The notes: generated by a model not told the origin, from the letters alone. A DNA stretch of 64,000 bases from a candidate division WOR-3 bacterium (GCA_965649295.1 CBFGKH010000007.1:56794-120793); one strand, 5' to 3'. Counted from the first letter of the stretch, positions 20,811-33,727 are shown. Program-made: numbers and translations.

Positions 20811-22181
20811 TCAGCGGCTGAGTCGAGGCGACCAAGAAGGAGAGAAGGCCCCCCCGATGTTAGTAACGCGTCGTTGATTTGTTCCGTTCCAGTCCATTGT
20901 GTAGAGTTCGTTTGTCCCGCTCCGCTGTGATACATACGCGATATGCAAACCGTCCGGCGACCACGTCGGGTCCTCGTTGTTACTACCGCCGGTAAGGCGC
21001 ATGTAGGTGTCGCCCATGATGTTGGTAACACAGATCTGATTGCTGCCGCCGGGTTGGCGTTGAACAAAGGCAATGAGGTCGCCACGTGGCGACCAGGCAG
21101 GTGACGTGTTGTAGCTGCCTTCGAATGTGAGACGACGAAGACCGGTGCCGTCGGCGTTCATGACGTATATCTGAGGGGAGCCGGTTCGATCTGAGACGAA
21201 TGCAAGCTGACGGCCGTTAGGCGCCCAGCAGGGAGAGATATCGATACCTGGACTGTGGGTCAGACGCCGCAGATTGCGTCCGTCCGAATCAACAAGGTAG
21301 ATTTCTGGCTGGCCCTCGAAGCTTAGAGAAATGGCGATGGTGCGGCCATCAGGCGACCAGGCTGGGGTAGTGTTCAGACCGGGACGGTCAGATACCAATG
21401 TCACTTTCCGCGAACCTAGTTCAAGACAATAGGTGTTGAGCGTGGTTCTACCGTAAGCGCTATAGCAGATGCGATTGCCGTCTGGGGACCAGTCTGGATA
21501 GAGTTTCAACCCGCCGGAGGTTGTGAGCTGGACCATGTTGGCGCCGTCGTAGTCAACAACTGCCAGTTCTTTTGTCTCGCGATCGAACTGGCGGGAGAAG
21601 ACGATCCGCGTACGGCTGACGCCTTCTTCGCCGGTAAGGAGTTTGATAACCTCGTCGGCCATCGTATGGGCAACCCAACGATGGTTACCCTCGAGGCTGA
21701 ATTCCTTGGTGGCGATCAGCCGGCTCATTTCGAGGTCGTAGAGCCGAAGTGTAATGCCTGTGCCGCTGCGGCGCGGCACGATCTCGCCAGCAATGAGGAC
21801 TTGGGCGCCGGTACTGCTCCAGCCTTTCAAGTCGGGTTTACGTGGATCGGTCGAGAAGGTGAAACGCCGTCCGGATTCTGGTTCCTGAAATGTGAAGTGG
21901 AGCGAAAACTTCAGGTCGGCGGTGAAGACTTCCTGGACCTCGCGGCCAGTTGCCGCGACGGTTGCGCTGACATTCTTGGCGGCGTTGAAGTCAGCAATGA
22001 CTAGGTCGAGTTTTTTGCGGCCACCACTAGATGTTAGCTTGAGCCAGAGTTCTTCAGCAGGGATGCCGATGTCAGCCGGCGGAGCTGGGGTTAGAGTCGG
22101 TTGCTGGGCTGCAGCAATGGTGGTGACGGTCAGTAACAGTGGTAAGAAGAACAAACGAGAAAAACCGAGTCTCGGGGACAC
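20811..22181 (-). CDS. tolB: TolB-like periplasmic beta-propeller protein
   Basis: Signal peptide, TolB N-terminal domain (AHTMADEV...TGEEG..RTRIVF), repeated PxWSPDG; FVSDRTGSPQIY. Confidence 0.88.
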   Translation of the reverse strand: MSPRLGFSRLFFLPLLLTVTTIAAAQQPTLTPAPPADIGIPAEELWLKLTSSGGRKKLDLVIADFNAAKNVSATVAATGREVQEVFTADLKFSLHFTFQEPESGRRFTFSTDPRKPDLKGWSSTGAQVLIAGEIVPRRSGTGITLRLYDLEMSRLIATKEFSLEGNHRWVAHTMADEVIKLLTGEEGVSRTRIVFSRQFDRETKELAVVDYDGANMVQLTTSGGLKLYPDWSPDGNRICYSAYGRTTLNTYCLELGSRKVTLVSDRPGLNTTPAWSPDGRTIAISLSFEGQPEIYLVDSDGRNLRRLTHSPGIDISPCWAPNGRQLAFVSDRTGSPQIYVMNADGTGLRRLTFEGSYNTSPAWSPRGDLIAFVQRQPGGSNQICVTNIMGDTYMRLTGGSNNEDPTWSPDGLHIAYVSQRSGTNELYTMDWNGTNQRRVTNIGGAFSPSWSPRLSR

Positions 22182-22189
22182 GTGTGGTA

Positions 22190-22939
22190 TCAGCGAATAA
22201 CCGGGAGCCAGTCGTGGAGCAGGAAATAGAAACGGCCAATGAGTAGTGAAATGCGGGCCATCACGGTGTAGCCGAATGATGCCCCGAATGCTACCATGAT
22301 GAAGACAATGCCGATGCGCGAGGCAACACCGAGTGCGCCCTTATGTTCCTTCGAAAAATAGAAGTAGAACAGCGTCGTTATGACACCGACAAAGACCACA
22401 ATGTTGTTGACCGTTACCAGCGGGCGCAGAGTATCTGAGACCTGGGGCAACAGATAGCCCTGAATAGTTGCAACAAGCCCTAACCCTGAGCCAATGCCGA
22501 CTGTGAAGGCGATCGGCCACCGCGAAATCCAATCGATACGCGGATTGACCAATGTTGGTACAAACATCAGAATGCACATACCGGCCAGGACAAGCAGTAT
22601 CCAACTGAACTGGTGAAAGATGAGCATAAGGACTGAAAGGGCAGCAAGGGCGGGCAAGGTGAGGTTCGAGCGCGAGAGCATCAGCACACCGAGCGCTGCT
22701 GGTATCAGCAGGATCCAGGCTTCAACTGGATTGTGACTTGTAAGGTTGGTTTCGAAGCGTTCGACGAGCATCGGATAGACATCAAATGCCCAGGCATAGA
22801 TGATTGCAAAACCGGCTGATGTTCCAACATAGACATGCTCGGCCGCTTTGTAGAGGGGGTTGTCCTTATATAGAAAGGAGAGAATACCGATGGTCAGCGT
22901 GGCTGCGACCCAGGTGCCAATGAGACTGAGCAGCATCAT
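22190..22939 (-). CDS. Polytopic membrane protein, subunit 4 of uncharacterised operon
   Basis: GTWVAATLTIGILSFLYKDNPLYKAAEH...FGASFGYTVMARISLLIGR; ~8 hydrophobic segments; ATGA overlap with upstream gene. Confidence 0.85.
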   Translation of the reverse strand: MMLLSLIGTWVAATLTIGILSFLYKDNPLYKAAEHVYVGTSAGFAIIYAWAFDVYPMLVERFETNLTSHNPVEAWILLIPAALGVLMLSRSNLTLPALAALSVLMLIFHQFSWILLVLAGMCILMFVPTLVNPRIDWISRWPIAFTVGIGSGLGLVATIQGYLLPQVSDTLRPLVTVNNIVVFVGVITTLFYFYFSKEHKGALGVASRIGIVFIMVAFGASFGYTVMARISLLIGRFYFLLHDWLPVIR

Positions 22940-23757
22940 TTGTTCCTTCGGCGCGAGAGAATATAGCCGAGATTGCCGGCAATCAGGAGAATGATGATGA
23001 GACCATGGGCAGCAGATTGAGCCGGCATGCCGAGTGTGGCAGAGCCGGGTCGCTGAACTAGGGCCTCGTATTCGGAAGCTCCTTGGAGGCCGCCAATCAG
23101 GCCGCGTATCTGGCCGGAGCGCAGATACTGGTAGAGATTCGGTGCATTGACACCTGTGCAACCGACAATGATCGCCTGATTATAGCGGCCGCCAGCATAT
23201 TGAATCCAGGCGTCGGCAACCGCCCCGTGCGCAAGGGAGACTAGCAGGTTGATGTCACGGTAGGTGTGTACTGAGCGCATGAATTCGAAGGAATCGATCG
23301 GTACTCCACGGTAGTCCGTGTTGAAGTAGTCGCGAAGTTCACGGCCGATGCCGACCATCATTGCGGTGTAGCCTGGTCGATATCCTAGGTTGACGTAGTC
23401 CACACCGTAGGTCTTACCCAAATGCGGTGCAACTTGATTGAGCGCTATTTCGGCCAGAGGCAGACCAAGGGCAAGCTGGCCGGAGACGATAACCCGGATG
23501 CCTTTGCTAAAGGCATGAATCAGCAGGGCGACGAGCATTGGTTGGACCTCAGGAGCGGACGACGGGTCAAAGTCGATTGAAATCATCATGACCGAACCTG
23601 GAGCAAGACTGTCAACTGCCTGGAACGCGCTGCGCACCGGTTCAGAGATACGGACTGTGGTGCGTGGTTTGATTATTAGCGGCAGGGCCACGGCGATCGA
23701 GAGAAGCAGATACAGGATACGGCGATCAACTGCAGCCAAGCGTTGCCAGACGTTCAT
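22936..23757 (-). CDS. Membrane-anchored alpha/beta protein, subunit 3 of uncharacterised operon
   Basis: N-terminal TM after DRRILYLL, soluble domain (DFDPSSAPE, YGVDYVNLGY, GLIGGLQGASEYE), C-terminal TM. Confidence 0.85.
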   Translation of the reverse strand: MNVWQRLAAVDRRILYLLLSIAVALPLIIKPRTTVRISEPVRSAFQAVDSLAPGSVMMISIDFDPSSAPEVQPMLVALLIHAFSKGIRVIVSGQLALGLPLAEIALNQVAPHLGKTYGVDYVNLGYRPGYTAMMVGIGRELRDYFNTDYRGVPIDSFEFMRSVHTYRDINLLVSLAHGAVADAWIQYAGGRYNQAIIVGCTGVNAPNLYQYLRSGQIRGLIGGLQGASEYEALVQRPGSATLGMPAQSAAHGLIIILLIAGNLGYILSRRRNK

Positions 23758-23760
23758 GGT

Positions 23761-24465
23761 CTATGACAGGTAGGTTCTTTCAATGCCGAGGATGATGCGG
23801 AGTGACATTGCCATTCCGCCGAGCGCGAGCCCAATATTGATACCGCGAGCGGCGGCAGCCTGGGGAACGGCCATTAGCCAATCTTTGACAGCGGCCAAGC
23901 CCTCCAGGCGGCCGAATGCTGCAGGGTCGAGTCCTGGCCAGACCAGATGAACAAAGGAGCCTATTGCCCGCCAGACTGTTCCGCCGAGGGGTACATTGCC
24001 CATCATTACTAGACAGGCGGCACATAGCAACAGAGTAGCTGCGAAATTGCGTATGCGGAAGGCTCGATAGGCGGCTGAGACAATGAAAAAGGCTAGGCTC
24101 GCGAACATCGTCGATTGCAGTGGGATAATCATATAAGTGTAGAGCCACATGAATGGAGCGCGTAGGTCGAAGGGCGTGCGGAATCGAAACCAGGAGTAGA
24201 GGCCGAGTCCAACCGTGGCGACCAGTGATAGAATGAGTAGCAAGCTGTAGAACCAGTTTGGCGAACGACGCCACACTTGCAGCAGATGATGGCGCGTCAG
24301 CGAGTCAAGGCCGAGCAGTAGCGTGAACCCAGCAACGATTGTGTACCAGTTCAGGAACCGTGATTCGAGATCACCGAACGGTCGGTGAGGAATGAAAAAG
24401 GCGACTATCAAAATGAGTGCGGTCAGGAAGACAATCGCCAGCGGGATACTGCGTCGTAACATCAC
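23761..24465 (-). CDS. Polytopic membrane protein, subunit 2 of uncharacterised operon
   Basis: ~6 hydrophobic segments; PLQSTMFASLAFFIVSAAYRAFR, RGINIGLALG..SLRIILGIER. Confidence 0.85.
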   Translation of the reverse strand: MMLRRSIPLAIVFLTALILIVAFFIPHRPFGDLESRFLNWYTIVAGFTLLLGLDSLTRHHLLQVWRRSPNWFYSLLLILSLVATVGLGLYSWFRFRTPFDLRAPFMWLYTYMIIPLQSTMFASLAFFIVSAAYRAFRIRNFAATLLLCAACLVMMGNVPLGGTVWRAIGSFVHLVWPGLDPAAFGRLEGLAAVKDWLMAVPQAAAARGINIGLALGGMAMSLRIILGIERTYLS

Positions 24466-25604
24466 TAGTAAGCGGGTGTTGCCCAGGTAACCAGCCTTTC
24501 GAACGCCGTGGCCAGAAATGGCACGCGGTGCCCTAGTAGAGTGTCGATCGTCCCGATCAGAACGACCAGTCCGATGAACACAATCAGCCAGAGTCGAATG
24601 AAGTCTTCACCCTTGAGCGAACCTAGCATCACCGGTTCGGGGCGAAGATAGCATGACGCAGCATAGATTTCTTCACCGATCATCGTGTAATCACAGGCCG
24701 CCACGAAGAACGGTAGCTGGGTGGTCTCAGTGGTTCCAGCGAGCTGGATTGCGCCAACCGAATGGCCGGTTTCGGCCATTATCAGCGATTCGGCATAGAA
24801 GTAGCCGAGCCAAAAGATGGCTCCTGGCTTCTCGCGGAGAATGATTCCATCAACACCAGCAGCGTAACCGAACTGGTCAGAAGTAAGGAAGCTAATGTTA
24901 TCCGGATTGTAGAAGTCGGGACGACCGGTTTCGGTGTATGCTTCTTTGACAGTCTCTTGGGCAGCTGACATCACGATTGGATCAGAATTAGGTACAAGCA
25001 GTCGGGTTGAGTATTCTGCAGACTTCCGAGCGATTTTGCGCAGGAGGGGGAGAGCCGCCACGACGACAATGTCAGTGATATAGCCAAGGCCGAAAGAGAA
25101 GAGTATCGGTCTGCCCATTTCGGTTGCCCGGCCGAGCGCGTCGTCGATTGCATCGAGTCCGGCGATCTTGCGAACGTACATCTTGACACCACGGCGAGCG
25201 CGTTGAATGTAGAGGATGAAGATGGCGCTGATGACCACTGCCGCTACAAGGATGTTCACGCGGGCAGTGTTGAACCACTGGGCACTGCTTTGGACCGGTC
25301 CGAAGACTGCGCTGCGAGCAGTGTCAGTAGCGTAGCAGGCGTCCACAGCGTAGTAGTAGTCCGTGTGGTTCGCTACGTTGTTATCAGCGAACTCGGTGTT
25401 TGTTGCCGGTTCAGTTCCGACGACGACGAATCCCGTGTCAGGAGACTGCGAGCGGAGGACACGGTAGCCGAGTACTGGATTAGAATCTTCTGGTGGGGTC
25501 CAGCTGATGATTATCGAATTGCCCTGATCATTGGGGTTGTCGGTAGCGACAACATTGGCAGGCGGTAGTGCCGCTAGAATGGCGAGTAGCGAGAGAAGTG
25601 TCAT
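24465..25604 (-). CDS. FN3 domain plus DUF6754-like membrane protein, subunit 1 of uncharacterised operon
   Basis: Signal peptide, FN3-like (PPANV...ISWTPP...GYRVLRS...YYYAV), TM, RKIAGLDAIDDALGRATEMGRP domain, IGEEIYAASCYL, C-terminal TM. Confidence 0.8.
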   Translation of the reverse strand: MTLLSLLAILAALPPANVVATDNPNDQGNSIIISWTPPEDSNPVLGYRVLRSQSPDTGFVVVGTEPATNTEFADNNVANHTDYYYAVDACYATDTARSAVFGPVQSSAQWFNTARVNILVAAVVISAIFILYIQRARRGVKMYVRKIAGLDAIDDALGRATEMGRPILFSFGLGYITDIVVVAALPLLRKIARKSAEYSTRLLVPNSDPIVMSAAQETVKEAYTETGRPDFYNPDNISFLTSDQFGYAAGVDGIILREKPGAIFWLGYFYAESLIMAETGHSVGAIQLAGTTETTQLPFFVAACDYTMIGEEIYAASCYLRPEPVMLGSLKGEDFIRLWLIVFIGLVVLIGTIDTLLGHRVPFLATAFERLVTWATPAY

Positions 25605-25622
25605 CGATATGCGAGGCGGTAA

Positions 25623-25650
25623 AGAGTAGCAGCGAATGGCGAACTGTCAA
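25623..25650 (-). promoter_or_regulatory. Promoter of the four-gene membrane operon
   Basis: TTGACA-16 bp-TACTCT. Confidence 0.7.
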
Positions 25651-25706
25651 ACACCGCTCGCGGCTGGGTTGTTGACAGGTCGGCGGCATGGCCATATGTT
25701 ACCTTG

Positions 25707-26519
25707 ATGGCCGAACATGATTTTGCAACTCAATCGCGCAAACCGTTGGTGGTTGGATCAGCAGGTGCAGATCGCCTTGAAACAGAGCAACTGGTGTTTC
25801 GTCCTGACCCGGTGAGGACAGTAGTCATTGCCCGGTTACGACTTTTGCTGCTTGGCCTTGCCGTGCTGATGCTCGTCATTACCATGGTTATACTCGTCGG
25901 TTACCGACCCCGCTACTCGGTTCGAACGCTTGCGGTAGGCGGTGATTCGGCGCCAGCTCCTGCATTCGTTTCTGCACCACTTCAATCTTTCAAGTCTGAG
26001 CAAGTTGTCCCGATCAATGACCGGTTTGCCGCTGTCCGGGTTGCCTTATGTAGCATTGACTCGACGGCGGCATTGGTTGAAGACCGCTGGCTTCGTACTA
26101 GAACCATGTTGCCTGCCAGTGAGCAGGACAGCGTTGGCGTGCATTCAGTTCTACCCGTGGTCCGTCGCGCGGCGATTCTGATCGACAGCACCGTCGTTGA
26201 CGCTGTTCGACTGCGGCAGAATCTTGCGTTGATACGTACTGCGGTCGATCGGGCAGATGGCAACGACGCATACAATCTCAGTCTAGTGTATGCCGCAGCT
26301 GGCCGCTACGTTGAAGCGGTAATCGGCCGTGACGCCGAACGCCGGTTTCACGTGGCAGCCATCGAGCAAGCGTTCCATTCGCTGGCCGCAGGTGATGTCG
26401 GCGATTACGATGTCAAGCTCGACGTTGCCAATAGTTACCGCTATCGAGCCGACAATCGTCAACGAATGATTCAGCGATTGGCCCAGCAGCTCTCGGAAGC
26501 GGCCGGAAGGTTGCAGTGA
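25707..26519 (+). CDS. Hypothetical single-pass membrane protein
   Basis: One TM then helical domain; TTGACA-17-TATGTT-6 nt-ATG upstream. Confidence 0.65.
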   Translation: MAEHDFATQSRKPLVVGSAGADRLETEQLVFRPDPVRTVVIARLRLLLLGLAVLMLVITMVILVGYRPRYSVRTLAVGGDSAPAPAFVSAPLQSFKSEQVVPINDRFAAVRVALCSIDSTAALVEDRWLRTRTMLPASEQDSVGVHSVLPVVRRAAILIDSTVVDAVRLRQNLALIRTAVDRADGNDAYNLSLVYAAAGRYVEAVIGRDAERRFHVAAIEQAFHSLAAGDVGDYDVKLDVANSYRYRADNRQRMIQRLAQQLSEAAGRLQ

Positions 26520-27235
26520 GGGTCGGGCATCTGTTAGTTGGTGGCTTGGGGGTGCTGCTGCTTGTGATTGGCTGCGATTCAAGTGCCATGCGTCCAGGGG
26601 CTGTGCGGGGGAGCGTAATTTTGGGCTGCTGCGAATCGACTGATGTTCGGGGTAGTGTAGTTGAACTGCGGCGGACGGCGGATATTGTTGACCCGCCAGC
26701 CTACAGCGTACATGTGGGTTCTTCAGACCGTTTCTGGCGGGCGGACTTCATGATTATTGGAGTCGAGCCTGATTCCTACCACGTTCTGGTCTGGAAGGAC
26801 GATGATGGGGATGAGACTATCAGTGATGGTGATCACGTTGGGGTACACCTTGGAGTCTATGCCCGTAATCAGCTTGGTTCAAAGTTGCTGGTCACACGGG
26901 CAGAAACAGTTGATGTCGGTGGGATTGAATTGAGGCGGCTGTGGCAATTGGCCGTCAGAGCTTGGGGAGAGAGGCAAGATACGGGCCGAGGGGTCCGATT
27001 TGGGTATCAATTCAATCATGACTGCGATCTGCAACTGCTGACAATCGGTTTTCCGAGCGGGGAGACACTGCCGGACTTCGGCTCGGTCGGTCCCCGGCTT
27101 GCTGATTCGATCTATGTGACAGCGACCTGGCGAGCTGGTGGCCAGGTGATGCCACGTGGTTGGTACGGACTTGTATTTCGAGGCCGGTTCCGTCATCAGA
27201 GCTTCGTTCGCGCAGCTGCTGTGTTTGTCGAGTAG
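26516..27235 (+). CDS. Hypothetical lipoprotein
   Basis: Lipobox VIGC; Ca-binding-like DDDGDETISDGD loop; GTGA coupling to upstream gene. Confidence 0.7.
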   Translation: MRVGHLLVGGLGVLLLVIGCDSSAMRPGAVRGSVILGCCESTDVRGSVVELRRTADIVDPPAYSVHVGSSDRFWRADFMIIGVEPDSYHVLVWKDDDGDETISDGDHVGVHLGVYARNQLGSKLLVTRAETVDVGGIELRRLWQLAVRAWGERQDTGRGVRFGYQFNHDCDLQLLTIGFPSGETLPDFGSVGPRLADSIYVTATWRAGGQVMPRGWYGLVFRGRFRHQSFVRAAAVFVE

Positions 27236-29252: not shown

Positions 29253-29461
29253 ACCGGCAGTTCCGCTACGACCAGTTGTGGAGTGCGCCACTGATTGGGC
29301 GACTGGTTGTGGTTCGGATTACATTGAGCTAACCGACCGCATATACCGCGCTAATGGTCAGGTCGTAGCATTCTGGGCTGAGTATGGCTCGGCCGGCAAG
29401 TGTCGGTCAAAGACACGCCAGACTCGCAACCGTAAGCGAAAGACCGAAGCAGGAGGCACTG

Positions 29462-32400
29462 ATGCGTGTAATCACAGCAATGCTTGCAGTGGCACTATTC
29501 TTGGTGTCGCTCGCGGGCGCACAAAACCAGGCGTTCTTGTTCAAATACCCTCGTTTCGTACAGGGTCAGGCAGGGACTGGAACTCCGGGGACCGGCGTTC
29601 CTTTTGCAGTATTGGGCGGTGCAAGAGCCGCTACAGCAGGCACTTATGCCTACAAACCGCGGTTGATTCTGACTACTGGTGCTGCAGCCCAGCAGATTAA
29701 TTGGGTGGACAGCACATCACCAACACCTTTCATTTGGGCGCTTGATAACATAGCATGGGCGAACTGTCCGACTTTCTATGTCCCGTCGGCCACTGGCGAG
29801 ACAGCCAAAGTTTGGGCAGCGGTGAAGTGTGCCACTACCACCGTTGGCGAACGTGATACGTTAAGGTTTAGAATCCGGATTGGCACCAGCAACATCGATA
29901 GTCCGAATCAGAACGATACTGTGAAAGTACTGGATATGACGTCATCGGGTAACGGTGGTTGGCTGACAGGGCATATTTACGCTCCCGGTCCTGGGGCGCC
30001 ACGTCAGAACTGTGTTGTCCTGGCGTTCGACGACGACATGTGCGTTGGTTCCTGTTTTACGGAGAACAACAAAATCATCGAAGGTTACGACTCAACCGAT
30101 GCAGGCTATTTTTACATGGCGGTCAGGGCGGGTACTATTGACTCACTCCAGGTGTATGCCCGGACAGAGTTCGTCCCTTCGCCGTTCTATACGCAGATAC
30201 CGGCGCCTTGGACCGTTGTTCCCGGAGGCACGACTTCAGTAGATCTCACTTTGGGCCCTACGATTACCGATGTGGCACGAAACATAGCTTGGCCCTACAG
30301 TAATGAGAACGTTAACGTCTGGGCGACAATTACTCCGCCGACTGGGGGAACGATTGACATTGCTCAGTTGCAGTACTCGACTGACGGAACCAACTGGACA
30401 TCCAGCGTCGCGGACTCAACAGCATCCGGCAATCCCAGCGTTTACTATTTCCATTTTCAGGTTCCAACTGCTGACTCGGTGCTCTACCGTATCTATGCCC
30501 ACAGCATCAATCCAGTGAGCGAGTCGTATTCATCGATAGTCAAGGTGATGATTCCGCTTGAACGGACGATTTACCAGATTCAAGGACAAGCTTCCTCCTC
30601 GCCACTTGTCGGCAAGTATGTCCACACAGCCGGTATCGTGACTGGAATCTGCGGCAAAGATCGGGTCTATATCGGCACGGCCAGCGGCGGTCCCTGGAAT
30701 GGACTGCTTTTCTACCGTGGCGCTGATACGATTACTTTGACCCTTACCCTTGGCGACAGTATTGATATTTCCGGGACAATTGCCGAGTTTCAGCAGCAGA
30801 CCCAGATTGGTTCATCGGTACGAACCGTACGGAACGGCACCAATCGGCCGTATGACACGACTCGCGTGAGTTTGGCGCAGGCGAAACTGGAAGACTACGA
30901 AGGCGTACTGGTTGAGGTTGATACTGTGCGAATGTTGCAGTCCGGCGTCTTTGCCGGCAACGGCACCTACCACTGTACAACTTTCGAAGGTCTAGATACG
31001 ATGGTTGTTTACACCTACCAGCGTGCGCCAATTGTCGGTCAACCGATTCCCCAAGGTTACCATACGCTGGTCGCCAACGTGGCAGACTATACCGGTGTTG
31101 GGCGAGAACTGGTGCCGAGTAACATCGGCGCTTTCACCTTCATCGCACCGGATGTGCAGCTCGCCAGCATACTAGCACCGGCCGAGACAGTGGTTGTTGG
31201 CGAGCCCTGCGTGCCGGAGGTGAACATCACTAACCTCAGCACAATCAACACTGCGGCCAACTTCACTACGCGGTTCACTATTGCGCCGGCGGGCGGTGGT
31301 GTTCCAGTTTATAACGTTCAGAGTGGCTTTGTTTCAGTCGCCCCAGGCGTGACGCTACCCGTTTTGTTCACGAACTGGAACGCTTACGACGGTGACTTTG
31401 CGATAAAGGCCTATGTTGAGTACGGCGCGGACCCGAATCGAAGTAACGACACGCTCGAAAGGCTATTGTTCGTTCGGACACGCGATGTCGGTGTCACGCA
31501 AATCAATTATCCTGCCGACACGGCATTCCTAAATGTTTCAGTCACTCCGCAGGTGCGTCTTGTGAACGCTGGCAATATCGTTGCAACGTTGAGCCTCCAG
31601 GTGACGATAACTGGTCCGGGCGGGATTGAGTATGACCGTACTGTTAATGGCATTGTGCTTGCGCCGGAACAGGTGCTAGACTACTCGCTGGCCGATGCTT
31701 GGACGCCTGCCAACGTTGGCGACTACGTTGCGTCAGTGAGCGTTACGACCGCCTACGATAACAATCTTGCCAACAATCAGGTGACGGAGAATATTCTCGT
31801 TCTCACTGGTCCCGCTTCGCCAGTTCTCGTGACACCAGCGAATCATGCCCAGATCAATGATCCAACTCCATTCTTCAGTTGGCAGACCTCGACTGGCGCG
31901 AACTGGTATCAGTTGCAGGTTTCGACCGATCCGGCATTTGTAGAACCATGCCTAATTGATGTCCAGCAGACCAGTACTACCTACGTACCAGTCGCTGGTT
32001 TAGCAGATGGCCAGTACTACTGGCGCGTGCGGGCGTCAGCTAACAACGGTTTAGATTGGGGAGCTTACCAAGCTGAGCCATTTGACTTCGAACTGGACGC
32101 CACTCCACCGGCCCCGCCGCAACTTGTGACCCCTGGTCCGAACGCTGTTGACGTCGCGGTGAATACCGTCTTTGACTGGGAGGCACCTGAGTTCAAGAGA
32201 ATCGGCGCCCAGCCTAACAGTGGAAAGTTCAAGTATGCAGGAACCGATGCAGTGGAGGCCTACCTCCTGCAGGTTGCCCGTGACGCTGGATTCAACCAGC
32301 TAGTCTATGACGTTGAGGTCCTCGGTGTCGTGACGGAATGGGCTCAGCCCGGGCCGACCTATCTGGACTATGGAACAAGATACTGGTGGCGAGTGCGTGG

Positions 32401-33727
32401 CGAGGACAACTTTGGGAACGTCGGCGACTGGGGAACAGGGACTTTTACGACTGTGACAAACGTTGTTCCGCCAGGCGGCTGGACCGCTCGTCCTGACACA
32501 ATGATTGGCGCCCCGGTTCGTGACGGCGGTGGCATCACCTACAACGCCGACAAAGGCTTGATGTACGCCATCAAGGGCGGCAAGACCAATGAGTTCTGGC
32601 AGTACAACCCGGTAGAGACGACCTGGACCAAGCTCACTGACGTCACCGCTGGCACCAAGCCGGTCAACAAAGGCGCAGCCATCACCACCGGCGGCGGGTT
32701 CGTCTATGTGCTGAAGGGCAACAACACCTACGACTTCTACAAGTACGACATCGAGGCTGGGACCTGGGCTGCCTGCAAGCCCCTGCCCAAGGCGCTGGAC
32801 CAGACTGCGACCCGGGGCAAGGCGGCCAAAGGCGGCGGCAGCCTGGCCTATGTCTATACTCGCGATTCGAGCTTCGTCTATACGCTGAAGGGCTCGGGCA
32901 CGAACGAGTTCTACCGCTACGACGTGGCCCGCGACACCTTCTTCTCACTGGCGCCCGCGCCATACAACACCAAGGCGAAGTACGACAAGGGTAGCTGGAT
33001 TGCCTACGACGGCAGCCGGTTCATCTACCTGATGCAGAACAAGTACAACGCCTTGTTCAAGTATGATGTCGTGAATGAGGCTTGGGTGACGACGCCGACG
33101 CTCGACCCGATGCCACTGGTTGGCCGGTCGGGCAAGTCGAAGAAGGTCGGCGACGGCTCGTGCGCGGCCTTCAACACGAACGACGGTTACCTGTTCGCGA
33201 TGAAGGGCAATAACACGCAGGAGGCGTGGAAGTACCTGCCTGGTACAAGCGACACCTGGGTCGAGCTCGAGACAATCCCGCAGGCTTATGAGGGCGGCAA
33301 GAAGAAGAAGGTGAAGGCTGGTGCCGGTGTAGCTTACTATCCGGCGACTCGCGTCTTCTTCGTCCAGAAGGGTAACAAGTCGAACCAGTTCTGGAAGTAT
33401 GTGCCTGGCTCAGTGGTCTATGCCTCTCGTCCGCAGCGTGAGGGCATCGCGGTCAGTGGGCTAACCAGCGTTGGCCACAGTCTGGCGATCGCACCGAATC
33501 CGCTGGCTGGCGGTCAGGCAGTAGTGCGCTACACCTTGCCGCGGGCTGGAATGGTGAGCCTGAGCGTCTGCGATGTCACTGGCCGCGTGGTGATGGAGCG
33601 GACGTTTGCGGCTGGCCGGACCGGCGTACAGAGCCTCGACCTGCGCGGGCTCTCGGCTGGAGTGTACCTTGTCAAGCTAGACGCTAGTGGGTTCACTTTG
33701 AGCCAGAAGCTCGTAGTCGAGCGCTAG
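29462..33727 (+). CDS. Large secreted modular protein (OB-fold-like, CARDB/Ig, FN3, Kelch-like propeller, T9SS type-A-like C-terminal tail)
   Basis: AGGAGG SD plus ATG 29462, signal peptide; IYQIQG..SSPLVG..V.T.GIVT; YYWRVRA; repeats of YxxKGNNTxxFYKY; tail APNP...VRYTL...DVTGR...LSAGVYLVKL...KLVVER. Confidence 0.85.
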   Translation: MRVITAMLAVALFLVSLAGAQNQAFLFKYPRFVQGQAGTGTPGTGVPFAVLGGARAATAGTYAYKPRLILTTGAAAQQINWVDSTSPTPFIWALDNIAWANCPTFYVPSATGETAKVWAAVKCATTTVGERDTLRFRIRIGTSNIDSPNQNDTVKVLDMTSSGNGGWLTGHIYAPGPGAPRQNCVVLAFDDDMCVGSCFTENNKIIEGYDSTDAGYFYMAVRAGTIDSLQVYARTEFVPSPFYTQIPAPWTVVPGGTTSVDLTLGPTITDVARNIAWPYSNENVNVWATITPPTGGTIDIAQLQYSTDGTNWTSSVADSTASGNPSVYYFHFQVPTADSVLYRIYAHSINPVSESYSSIVKVMIPLERTIYQIQGQASSSPLVGKYVHTAGIVTGICGKDRVYIGTASGGPWNGLLFYRGADTITLTLTLGDSIDISGTIAEFQQQTQIGSSVRTVRNGTNRPYDTTRVSLAQAKLEDYEGVLVEVDTVRMLQSGVFAGNGTYHCTTFEGLDTMVVYTYQRAPIVGQPIPQGYHTLVANVADYTGVGRELVPSNIGAFTFIAPDVQLASILAPAETVVVGEPCVPEVNITNLSTINTAANFTTRFTIAPAGGGVPVYNVQSGFVSVAPGVTLPVLFTNWNAYDGDFAIKAYVEYGADPNRSNDTLERLLFVRTRDVGVTQINYPADTAFLNVSVTPQVRLVNAGNIVATLSLQVTITGPGGIEYDRTVNGIVLAPEQVLDYSLADAWTPANVGDYVASVSVTTAYDNNLANNQVTENILVLTGPASPVLVTPANHAQINDPTPFFSWQTSTGANWYQLQVSTDPAFVEPCLIDVQQTSTTYVPVAGLADGQYYWRVRASANNGLDWGAYQAEPFDFELDATPPAPPQLVTPGPNAVDVAVNTVFDWEAPEFKRIGAQPNSGKFKYAGTDAVEAYLLQVARDAGFNQLVYDVEVLGVVTEWAQPGPTYLDYGTRYWWRVRGEDNFGNVGDWGTGTFTTVTNVVPPGGWTARPDTMIGAPVRDGGGITYNADKGLMYAIKGGKTNEFWQYNPVETTWTKLTDVTAGTKPVNKGAAITTGGGFVYVLKGNNTYDFYKYDIEAGTWAACKPLPKALDQTATRGKAAKGGGSLAYVYTRDSSFVYTLKGSGTNEFYRYDVARDTFFSLAPAPYNTKAKYDKGSWIAYDGSRFIYLMQNKYNALFKYDVVNEAWVTTPTLDPMPLVGRSGKSKKVGDGSCAAFNTNDGYLFAMKGNNTQEAWKYLPGTSDTWVELETIPQAYEGGKKKKVKAGAGVAYYPATRVFFVQKGNKSNQFWKYVPGSVVYASRPQREGIAVSGLTSVGHSLAIAPNPLAGGQAVVRYTLPRAGMVSLSVCDVTGRVVMERTFAAGRTGVQSLDLRGLSAGVYLVKLDASGFTLSQKLVVER

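Follow-up and report, generated by a model that had tools for sequence, protein, structure and literature searches.

The stretch of DNA analysed here (the window) comprises 64,000 nucleotides (nt) of a candidate division WOR-3 bacterium (GCA_965649295.1, CBFGKH010000007.1:56794-120793) and carries on its minus strand an operon of four membrane protein genes, g1 to g4, the first of which belongs to the uncharacterised family DUF6754. The gene g1 (24465-25604, minus strand) encodes 379 amino acids (aa) with a predicted signal peptide, a putative fibronectin type III (FN3) ectodomain, a transmembrane (TM) helix, a highly conserved cytoplasmic Rossmann-like domain corresponding to DUF6754 and a second TM helix. 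It is followed on the same strand by g2 (23761-24465, 234 aa), a polytopic protein with about six predicted TM helices and the conserved motifs SAAYRAFRxRN and LGIER, by g3 (22936-23757, 273 aa), in which a predicted periplasmic Rossmann-like alpha/beta domain is enclosed by two TM helices, and by g4 (22190-22939, 249 aa), likewise polytopic and featuring the conserved motifs DNPFYKxAEH and GFGASFGYTVMAR. An original prediction, made for this locus from the DNA alone, had described four tightly packed, co-directional membrane genes, and the open reading frames (ORFs) and their junctions were verified: the g1 stop and the GTG start of g2 overlap by 1 nt, g2 and g3 are separated by 3 nt, and g3 and g4 overlap by 4 nt. 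Both motifs quoted in that prediction are present as well, i.e., RGINIGLALG...SLRIILGIER in g2 and FGASFGYTVMARISLLIGR in g4. As the start of g4 we took the ATG at 22939, which shares the sequence ATGA with the stop codon of g3 and agrees with the homologues; the ORF listed for g4 opens further upstream at a TTG.

The boundaries of the unit turned out differently from what had been proposed. An own promoter had been assumed upstream of g1, where a divergent intergenic region of 99 nt (25605-25703, assigned to no strand) represents the presumed promoter region, but a scan limited to sigma-70-type promoters found no sigma-70-like site on the minus strand, and by eye only a TTGACA at 25651-25646 with a poor -10 element was recognized. 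A promoter-like site on the plus strand (25672-25700) faces the divergent gene. At the other end, the unit had been thought to close at 22190. Nevertheless, a tolB gene (20811-22181, minus strand; TolB_N plus PD40 beta-propeller) starts 8 nt past the g4 stop, a site scan found no terminator-like site between the two, and tolB is probably co-transcribed as the fifth gene.

Of the four products, only g1 could be assigned to a family. Its match to DUF6754 (PF20539) reaches an E value of 3e-107 and 358 bits (cut-off 27), with residues 107-353 covering profile positions 2-248 of 257, so that g1 is a clear member and the database names "DUF6754 domain-containing" or "fibronectin type III domain-containing" match. 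The family is catalogued only, with no function, partner genes or paper attached, and a literature search on DUF6754 and PF20539 found no paper. The FN3 domain (PF00041) scored 24.8 bits, just under the gathering cut-off of 25; a profile of 10 g1 sequences matched titin FN3 domains at E 5e-16 in a profile search of the PDB, and the sequence-level PDB search with g1 returned only FN3 rows. No Pfam or NCBIfam family matched g2, g3 or g4. In the PDB, the profile search with g2 yielded only potassium channel rows (E >= 0.41), which were regarded as chance, the search with g3 nothing below E 0.18 and the profile search with g4 no match; in the Atlas, g2 was found in unnamed clusters only. Pfam and NCBIfam searches of g1 to g4 were negative for MotA_ExbB, ExbD/TolR and TolA domains (E up to 0.01), for ABC_tran and permease families, for homology to EcfT/S or BPD_transp_1, for families with a cofactor or redox role and for motifs of flavin, Fe-S or NADH binding. 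These results, together with the PDB and PADLOC searches, bear out the earlier statement that g1 to g4 themselves contain no ATPase, redox or known transporter domain, and the subunits match no characterised family, the only family being the uncharacterised DUF6754 of g1. PADLOC returned 0 families for g1 to g4 as well as for the ATPase and partner protein described below, and a reading as an anti-phage defence system was rejected on this basis.

The topology was derived from hydropathy and flanking charges with a crude script rather than a dedicated predictor. It places the FN3 domain outside, the g1 core inside and the g3 domain outside, and features about six TM helices for g2 and a polytopic g4, in agreement with the orientation of g1 and g3 originally suggested. 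In the alignments of g2 (89 sequences) and g4 (79 sequences), conserved charged residues occur in or near the membrane parts (E229/R230 in g2; N27/E34 in g4). In addition, g4 carries at residues ~92-132 about 41 additional aa of hydrophobic character, which it shares with its closest relatives only: the matches in most relatives break at residues 91/133, only those from genomes G341 and G350 align across, and the protein of locus L005 is equally long. This stretch possibly forms one or two added TM helices.

For g1 (residues 105-379) and g3, AlphaFold2 models were built from alignments of 85 and 83 rows, respectively, and reached a pLDDT of 91.7 and pTM of 0.82 for g1 and a pLDDT of 95.1 and pTM of 0.91 for g3. 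Both models begin with a TM helix and a short helix; about 200 residues of alternating strands and helices in a Rossmann-like arrangement follow, and a long helix then leads into the second TM segment. Foldseek and VIA returned generic Rossmann-like matches only, with no close solved relative of either model. The invariant g1 residues G68, G163 to E168, G186/T187, D201 and G206/E207/E208 are located in the model at C-terminal strand ends or at the starts of the following helices; the C-terminal strand ends are the usual ligand site of Rossmann-like folds.

These models bear on the function proposed in the original prediction, a self-contained, pseudo-symmetric 2+2 secondary (ion-coupled) transporter with related ligand-binding domains on opposite membrane faces and without need of an ATPase. 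The operon itself indeed lacks an ATPase, g2 and g4 possess the conserved charged residues mentioned above in or close to their membrane parts, and g1 and g3 share the succession of TM helix, Rossmann-like domain of about 200 aa and TM helix. Moreover, 11 of the 50 best VIA rows are common to both models (1kjn_B, 3l4b_A, 4g65_A, 3llv_A, 1lsu_A, 4i5i_A, 3u31_A, 4j16_C, 8rsn_B, 6zdz_A and 1spx_A). However, such shared generic matches are to be expected, and a shared fold class does not show homology of g1 and g3 because the Rossmann-like fold is so common. At the sequence level, the symmetry was not recovered: hhalign gave a probability of 0.35% for g2 versus g4, and 2.2% and 3.3% for g1 versus g3, covering only a TM helix with its basic tail. 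Furthermore, the g1 core is far more conserved across loci than g3 (mean column identity 59% versus 37%), unlike two equivalent halves. What stands of the idea is that the modelled domains of g1 and g3 fit the same fold class and TM-domain-TM layout on opposite membrane faces, but not their homology. As the module moreover co-occurs, often contiguously, with an ATPase pair (see below), the secondary transporter appears quite improbable.

The recurrence of the four genes was as proposed. More than 6983 g1 homologues were obtained among 8000 candidates scored, the named ones originating mostly from candidate division WOR-3. A pattern scan over one genome per GTDB species resulted in at least 573 pattern matches and at least 552 loci confirmed by tblastn; the best 75 distinct loci were kept, their genes were called by our own ORF script, and the 78 g1 genes with at least 2600 nt downstream were counted as testable. 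The order g1-g2-g3-g4 on one strand was present for 74 of these 78, the others being two g1-g1 tandems and two exceptions (L034 and the second module of L056). Complete modules occur in 57 of the 75 loci and two or more modules in 16. The loci span about ten phyla, including WOR-3, Zixi-, Stahl-, Edwards-, Eisen-, Fermenti- and Latescibacteria, Cloacimonadota, Ignavibacteria and Planctomycetaceae, and in the phylum of an Ignavibacteria metagenome-assembled genome (MAG) DUF6754 was detected in 208 of 208 genomes, mostly with five matches each. Since g1 to g4 co-occur across genomes, the unit is real, and comparative genomics supports a conserved, uncharacterised four-subunit membrane unit that recurs in candidate-phylum bacteria.

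The WOR-3 genome from which the window originates (2.28 Mb, 19 contigs, 100% complete by markers) harbours four DUF6754 genes in three modules, located on contigs C7 (window), C5 and C4, with homologues of g1 to g4 in this order in both other copies. The third module (G000:C4:19131-23587) consists of two tandem g1 genes, with cores 68% and ectodomains 35% identical, followed by a single g2-g3-g4 set. In two Zixibacteria loci (L037:8658-11350 and L079:10298-12813), a third module features a gene inserted between g1 and g2, which in L037 encodes an MFS transporter. Identity among the three copies of the WOR-3 genome increases from the g1 ectodomain (33-41%) and g3 (34-44%) over g2 (42-53%) and g4 (47-56%) to the cytoplasmic core of g1 (51-68%). 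Outer parts that vary and a cytoplasmic part that is kept are what is expected if many modules share one cytoplasmic partner, and the picture suggested by these values is one of a single conserved interface on the cytoplasmic side that serves numerous divergent outer faces. In line with this, the ectodomains differ in type: of 249 long g1 forms with E <= 1e-20, the 120 listed comprise 40 with PQQ/BamB-like beta-propellers, 12 with FN3 and 68 with DUF6754 only (P0255 checked).

A candidate for such a cytoplasmic partner emerged from the flanks of the 75 loci. Clustering of 367 flanking ORFs revealed just two families in more than five loci, an ATPase (11 loci) and a partner protein of about 375 aa (12 loci), the partner gene being located between the ATPase gene and g1. 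By BLAST, 12 of the 75 loci have an ATPase homologue (64-71% identity) in their 7-kb flanks. Both genes are found outside the window in the WOR-3 genome, the ATPase as the only PF13941 (MutL) gene (contig C10, E 1e-124, called product 599 aa) and the partner as a single copy on contig C9 (L081:5178-6299, 373 aa, 55% identity). The linked ATPase matches Pfam MutL (PF13941) with 414.9 bits and E 5e-124, and the motifs D13-G15-S16-T17-T18-T19-K20 (DxGSTTTK), D287-I-G-G-A-T-T-D294 and G421-S-G-G424, which we take to be the phosphate-1, phosphate-2 and adenosine motifs of ASKHA proteins, are invariant in 26 of 26 aligned sequences. Across phyla the ATPase is 63-69% identical; a sequence-level PDB search with it returned nothing relevant.

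The relationship of this ATPase to GlmL/MutL, the glutamate (methylaspartate) mutase accessory protein, and Or-4 (PF13941, NF040745, NF040744, TIGR01319) is seen in the PF13941 match and the ASKHA nucleotide motifs. It differs by scores far below the NCBIfam GlmL cut-offs (NF040745, 221.6 versus 475 bits; TIGR01319, 154.7 versus 204.05), by an additional C-terminal part of about 100-120 aa and by its association with membrane modules instead of mutase genes. Databases name it "glutamate mutase L" or "methylaspartate mutase"; as the GlmL cut-off was failed and the gene does not stand next to mutase genes in the loci seen, these names are probably misleading. A literature search on TIGR01319, PF13941, glutamate mutase L and GlmL in combination with membrane or actin-like ATPase found nothing related. 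For the partner, no solved or named relative was found, with nothing below E 0.08 in the PDB search. In the Atlas clusters of its own family, Biotin_lipoyl is assigned to 11-21% and RnfC_N to 19% of the members, and in a more distant cluster (score 0.86) RnfC_N to 30% and NQRA_N to 10%; for a partner homologue (L079), Pfam reported no more than a sub-threshold match to Biotin_lipoyl (E 0.0011). The partner was also compared with g1 and g3, and homology to either was rejected (hhalign 0.1%).

The association extends beyond neighbouring genes. In a sample of 121 genomes from the phylum of a Planctomycetaceae MAG, many of them incomplete MAGs, DUF6754 was detected in 34, the ATPase in 34 and the partner in 32. 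DUF6754 and the ATPase occur together in 32 genomes, DUF6754 alone in two (G275, G304), the ATPase alone in two (G302, G326) and neither in 85; the Fisher p value of 1.6e-24 is overstated, since related genomes are not independent and many MAGs are incomplete. Likewise, DUF6754 and the partner are both present in 31 genomes, only DUF6754 in three, only the partner in one and neither in 86. In 21 of the 32 genomes with DUF6754 and ATPase, the ATPase gene and a DUF6754 gene are at most 7 kb apart on one contig, with ATPase-partner-g1 as the usual order read from coordinates. This co-occurrence, often contiguous, with a GlmL-like ASKHA ATPase and its partner argues against a self-contained secondary transporter, and judged by these gene associations the DUF6754 module is not self-contained.

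The RnfC_N and NQRA_N annotations of the partner raise the alternative of a membrane-bound enzyme or ion-pumping bioenergetic complex, in which the g1 domain would be catalytic and ATPase and partner would have the role of an activase or chaperone, in loose analogy to Nqr/Rnf and a peripheral subunit resembling NqrA. The likeness to Na+-NQR/Rnf may include this peripheral protein with its putative RnfC_N/NqrA_N-like barrel-sandwich domain. The membrane part is comparable as well: two of the subunits are polytopic and measure about 210-250 aa, a third has its domain in the periplasm, and the fourth possesses a Rossmann-like domain facing the cytoplasm. Many invariant charged residues at the crevice of the g1 fold would agree with a catalytic role. 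On contig C10 (L080:1-3276), the ATPase gene is translationally coupled to gcvPB via a 105-aa ORF, which shows a hydrophobic segment and no family match; the order gcvP, small ORF and ATPase is repeated in three Fermentibacteria loci (L052, L072, L077). Besides, one paralogous ATPase-partner pair (L082) lies beside two acyl-CoA dehydrogenase-like genes, as read from their first residues only. However, neither cofactor or redox families nor motifs for flavin, Fe-S or NADH were found in g1 to g4, and what is linked to them is an ATPase, not a redox input. For a core energy enzyme, it would be unusual to exist in three to five or more divergent versions per genome that differ in their ectodomains. 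Comparison of g2 and g4 with RnfE and RnfA of the same genome gave hhalign probabilities of 0.2-2.6%, and homology to RnfA/E (PF02508) was rejected. An enzyme or ion pump is thus unlikely, to a similarly strong degree as the secondary transporter.

The arrangement of many diverged modules and one ATPase leads us to favour, tentatively and at a little less than even chance, the reading that the four-gene sets are interchangeable membrane modules of an ATP-coupled transport machine, with uptake somewhat more likely than export. Its cytoplasmic part would be encoded once per genome and comprise the GlmL-like ASKHA ATPase (C10) and the partner with its putative RnfC_N/NqrA_N-like barrel-sandwich domain (C9). 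The nearly invariant cytoplasmic Rossmann-like domain of g1 would receive the ATP-dependent input from this pair, g2 and g4 would constitute the membrane path, and the periplasmic Rossmann-like domain of g3 together with the variable g1 ectodomain (FN3 here, beta-propellers elsewhere) would handle the cargo or a partner on the outer face. The job of the machine would be ATP-coupled transport, rather the uptake of organic nutrients than export, with amino acids or peptides, as in the original prediction, among the possible substrates; complex formation, ATP coupling and transport are all inferred from the gene set and its context.

A comparison is offered by ATP-binding cassette (ABC) importers in which one ATPase serves several membrane modules and by group-II energy-coupling factor (ECF) transporters. 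The likeness consists of one cytoplasmic energiser gene for several diverged modules whose outward parts are the most variable. The module differs in that neither an ABC/P-loop ATPase nor homology to EcfT/S or BPD_transp_1 nor an apparent two-lobed binding protein was found, and its candidate energiser is an actin-fold protein; no ABC or ECF permease or ATPase family was found among the recurrent neighbours. The preference for uptake refers to the WOR-3 genome, which contains only five BPD_transp_1 matches and one CstA, and in which AA_permease_2, OPT, PTR2 and SBP_bac_5 were not found. In addition, the three Fermentibacteria loci show the order gcvPA-gcvPB, small ORF, ATPase, partner, g1-g4, TonB-dependent receptor, ExbB and ExbD. 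A peptidase C25 with a type IX secretion system (T9SS) tail adjoins g1 in two loci and a class-III aminotransferase in three.

Several points weigh against ATP-driven uptake by these modules. The scarcity of transporters is a circumstantial argument, and we know of no ASKHA ATPase that drives a transporter; GlmL relatives are associated with B12 mutases rather than with membranes. Three Planctomycetota loci (L082:7387-10322, L083:6391-9332 and L084:6497-9552) contain diverged ATPase-partner pairs (44-47% and 33-41% identity) without a module, which implies that the pair can work without it. In the neighbour census, the ATPase pair was the only recurrent functional neighbour, and same-strand neighbours were otherwise diverse. 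Furthermore, the ectodomain types of g1 (FN3, beta-propellers) are not classical solute-binding folds, and the modelled g3 domain appears to consist of one Rossmann-like lobe, unlike binding proteins with their two lobes. Finally, neighbours in this genome and elsewhere point to export or the envelope (tolB, Wzi-like, PorV/PorQ-family and Wza-like SLBB genes).

These neighbours give rise to a further explanation, in which g1 to g4 would be the inner-membrane base of an ATP-driven envelope or surface apparatus for positioning, exporting or tethering components of the periplasm, outer membrane or surface, with the g1 ectodomain and the g3 domain gripping partners such as TolB. The fifth gene of the operon is a bona fide TolB: with 370.6 bits it exceeds the cut-off of the TolB equivalog TIGR02800 (343.15), it shows TolB_N at E 6.5e-10 and PD40 at E 8.6e-48, and it is the sole match above this cut-off in the genome. 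Genes resembling tolQ-tolR-tolA and pal are located together on contig C4 (G000:C4:143415-146260), without tolB. The adjacency of g4 and tolB is kept in 9 of 19 genomes of the same WOR-3 family, representing six genera (G000, G333, G334, G339, G340, G341, G347, G348 and G350); in the other ten, g4 and tolB are apart in four, tolB was not found in two incomplete genomes, and in four no close orthologue of this g4 was seen. Nevertheless, none of 12 genomes from four other families of the order showed this adjacency, and among the 75 loci it occurs in L005 only. From this distribution, the tolB link is judged to be old but local to one WOR-3 family. Despite the likeness to Tol-Pal conferred by TolB, g1 to g4 differ from this system by the absence of MotA_ExbB, ExbD and TolA domains, by the separate location of the tolQ-tolR-tolA-like and pal-like genes and by the confinement of the link to one family.

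Further envelope genes accompany other loci of the system. The module on C5 is followed after 2 nt by a gene for a 526-aa Wzi-like outer-membrane protein (PF14052, E 4.8e-14; L087:3054-4634, corresponding to G000:C5:47053-48633), a homologue of which comes next after g4 in L055. Likewise, a gene for a PorV/PorQ-family outer-membrane protein (NF033709, 132 bits versus a cut-off of 90; L081:5178-7193) begins 3 nt downstream of the partner gene on C9. Outer-membrane genes come after three of the five loci of the system in this genome. SLBB/Wza-like genes lie upstream in two loci and an LVIVD propeller downstream in one, and the BamB/PQQ-like beta-propellers on 40 of the 120 listed long g1 forms would also be in line with this explanation. 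On the other hand, outer-membrane barrels beside the modules fit uptake routes as well, and several modules per genome with one ATPase are more typical of substrate-specific transporters. The Atlas clusters of g2-like and partner-like proteins moreover list Bacillota and Chloroflexota as the commonest phyla, which suggests hosts without a classical outer membrane. An envelope or surface machine appears possible but doubtful.

Returning to ATP-coupled transport, the broader proposal would be that DUF6754 modules, the GlmL-like ATPase and the barrel-sandwich partner together represent a primary active membrane machine of a new class, in which one actin-fold ATPase powers several interchangeable modules. 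We regard this as a serious possibility that stays short of being probable. By the features examined, the module belongs neither to the ABC or ECF transporters nor to the Tol/Exb, Rnf/Nqr or defence systems. If the proposal were true, a third energising principle for prokaryotic transport would exist beside P-loop (ABC) and P-type ATPases. The system is present in every sampled genome of some phyla, multi-copy and very conserved, and matches nothing characterised. An actin-fold-ATPase transporter or envelope machine would close a wide gap in the known physiology of WOR-3, Zixibacteria, Ignavibacteria, Fermentibacteria, Cloacimonadota and part of the Planctomycetota, and the names "glutamate mutase L" and "methylaspartate mutase", now in widespread use, would have to be corrected. 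New in this analysis are the quantified operon link to tolB within one WOR-3 family, which supplies a concrete candidate partner, the outer-membrane genes after three of five system loci in the genome and confident predicted models of both Rossmann-like domains, by which the symmetry idea was tested.

Beyond the operon, the window contains two overlapping divergent genes directly upstream (25704-27235, plus strand), which encode 271 and 239 aa without a Pfam or NCBIfam family. Further along, a 1447-aa Kelch-repeat protein with a C-terminal type IX secretion sorting domain is encoded at 29384-33727 (plus strand), and this sorting domain implies that the organism has T9SS cargo.

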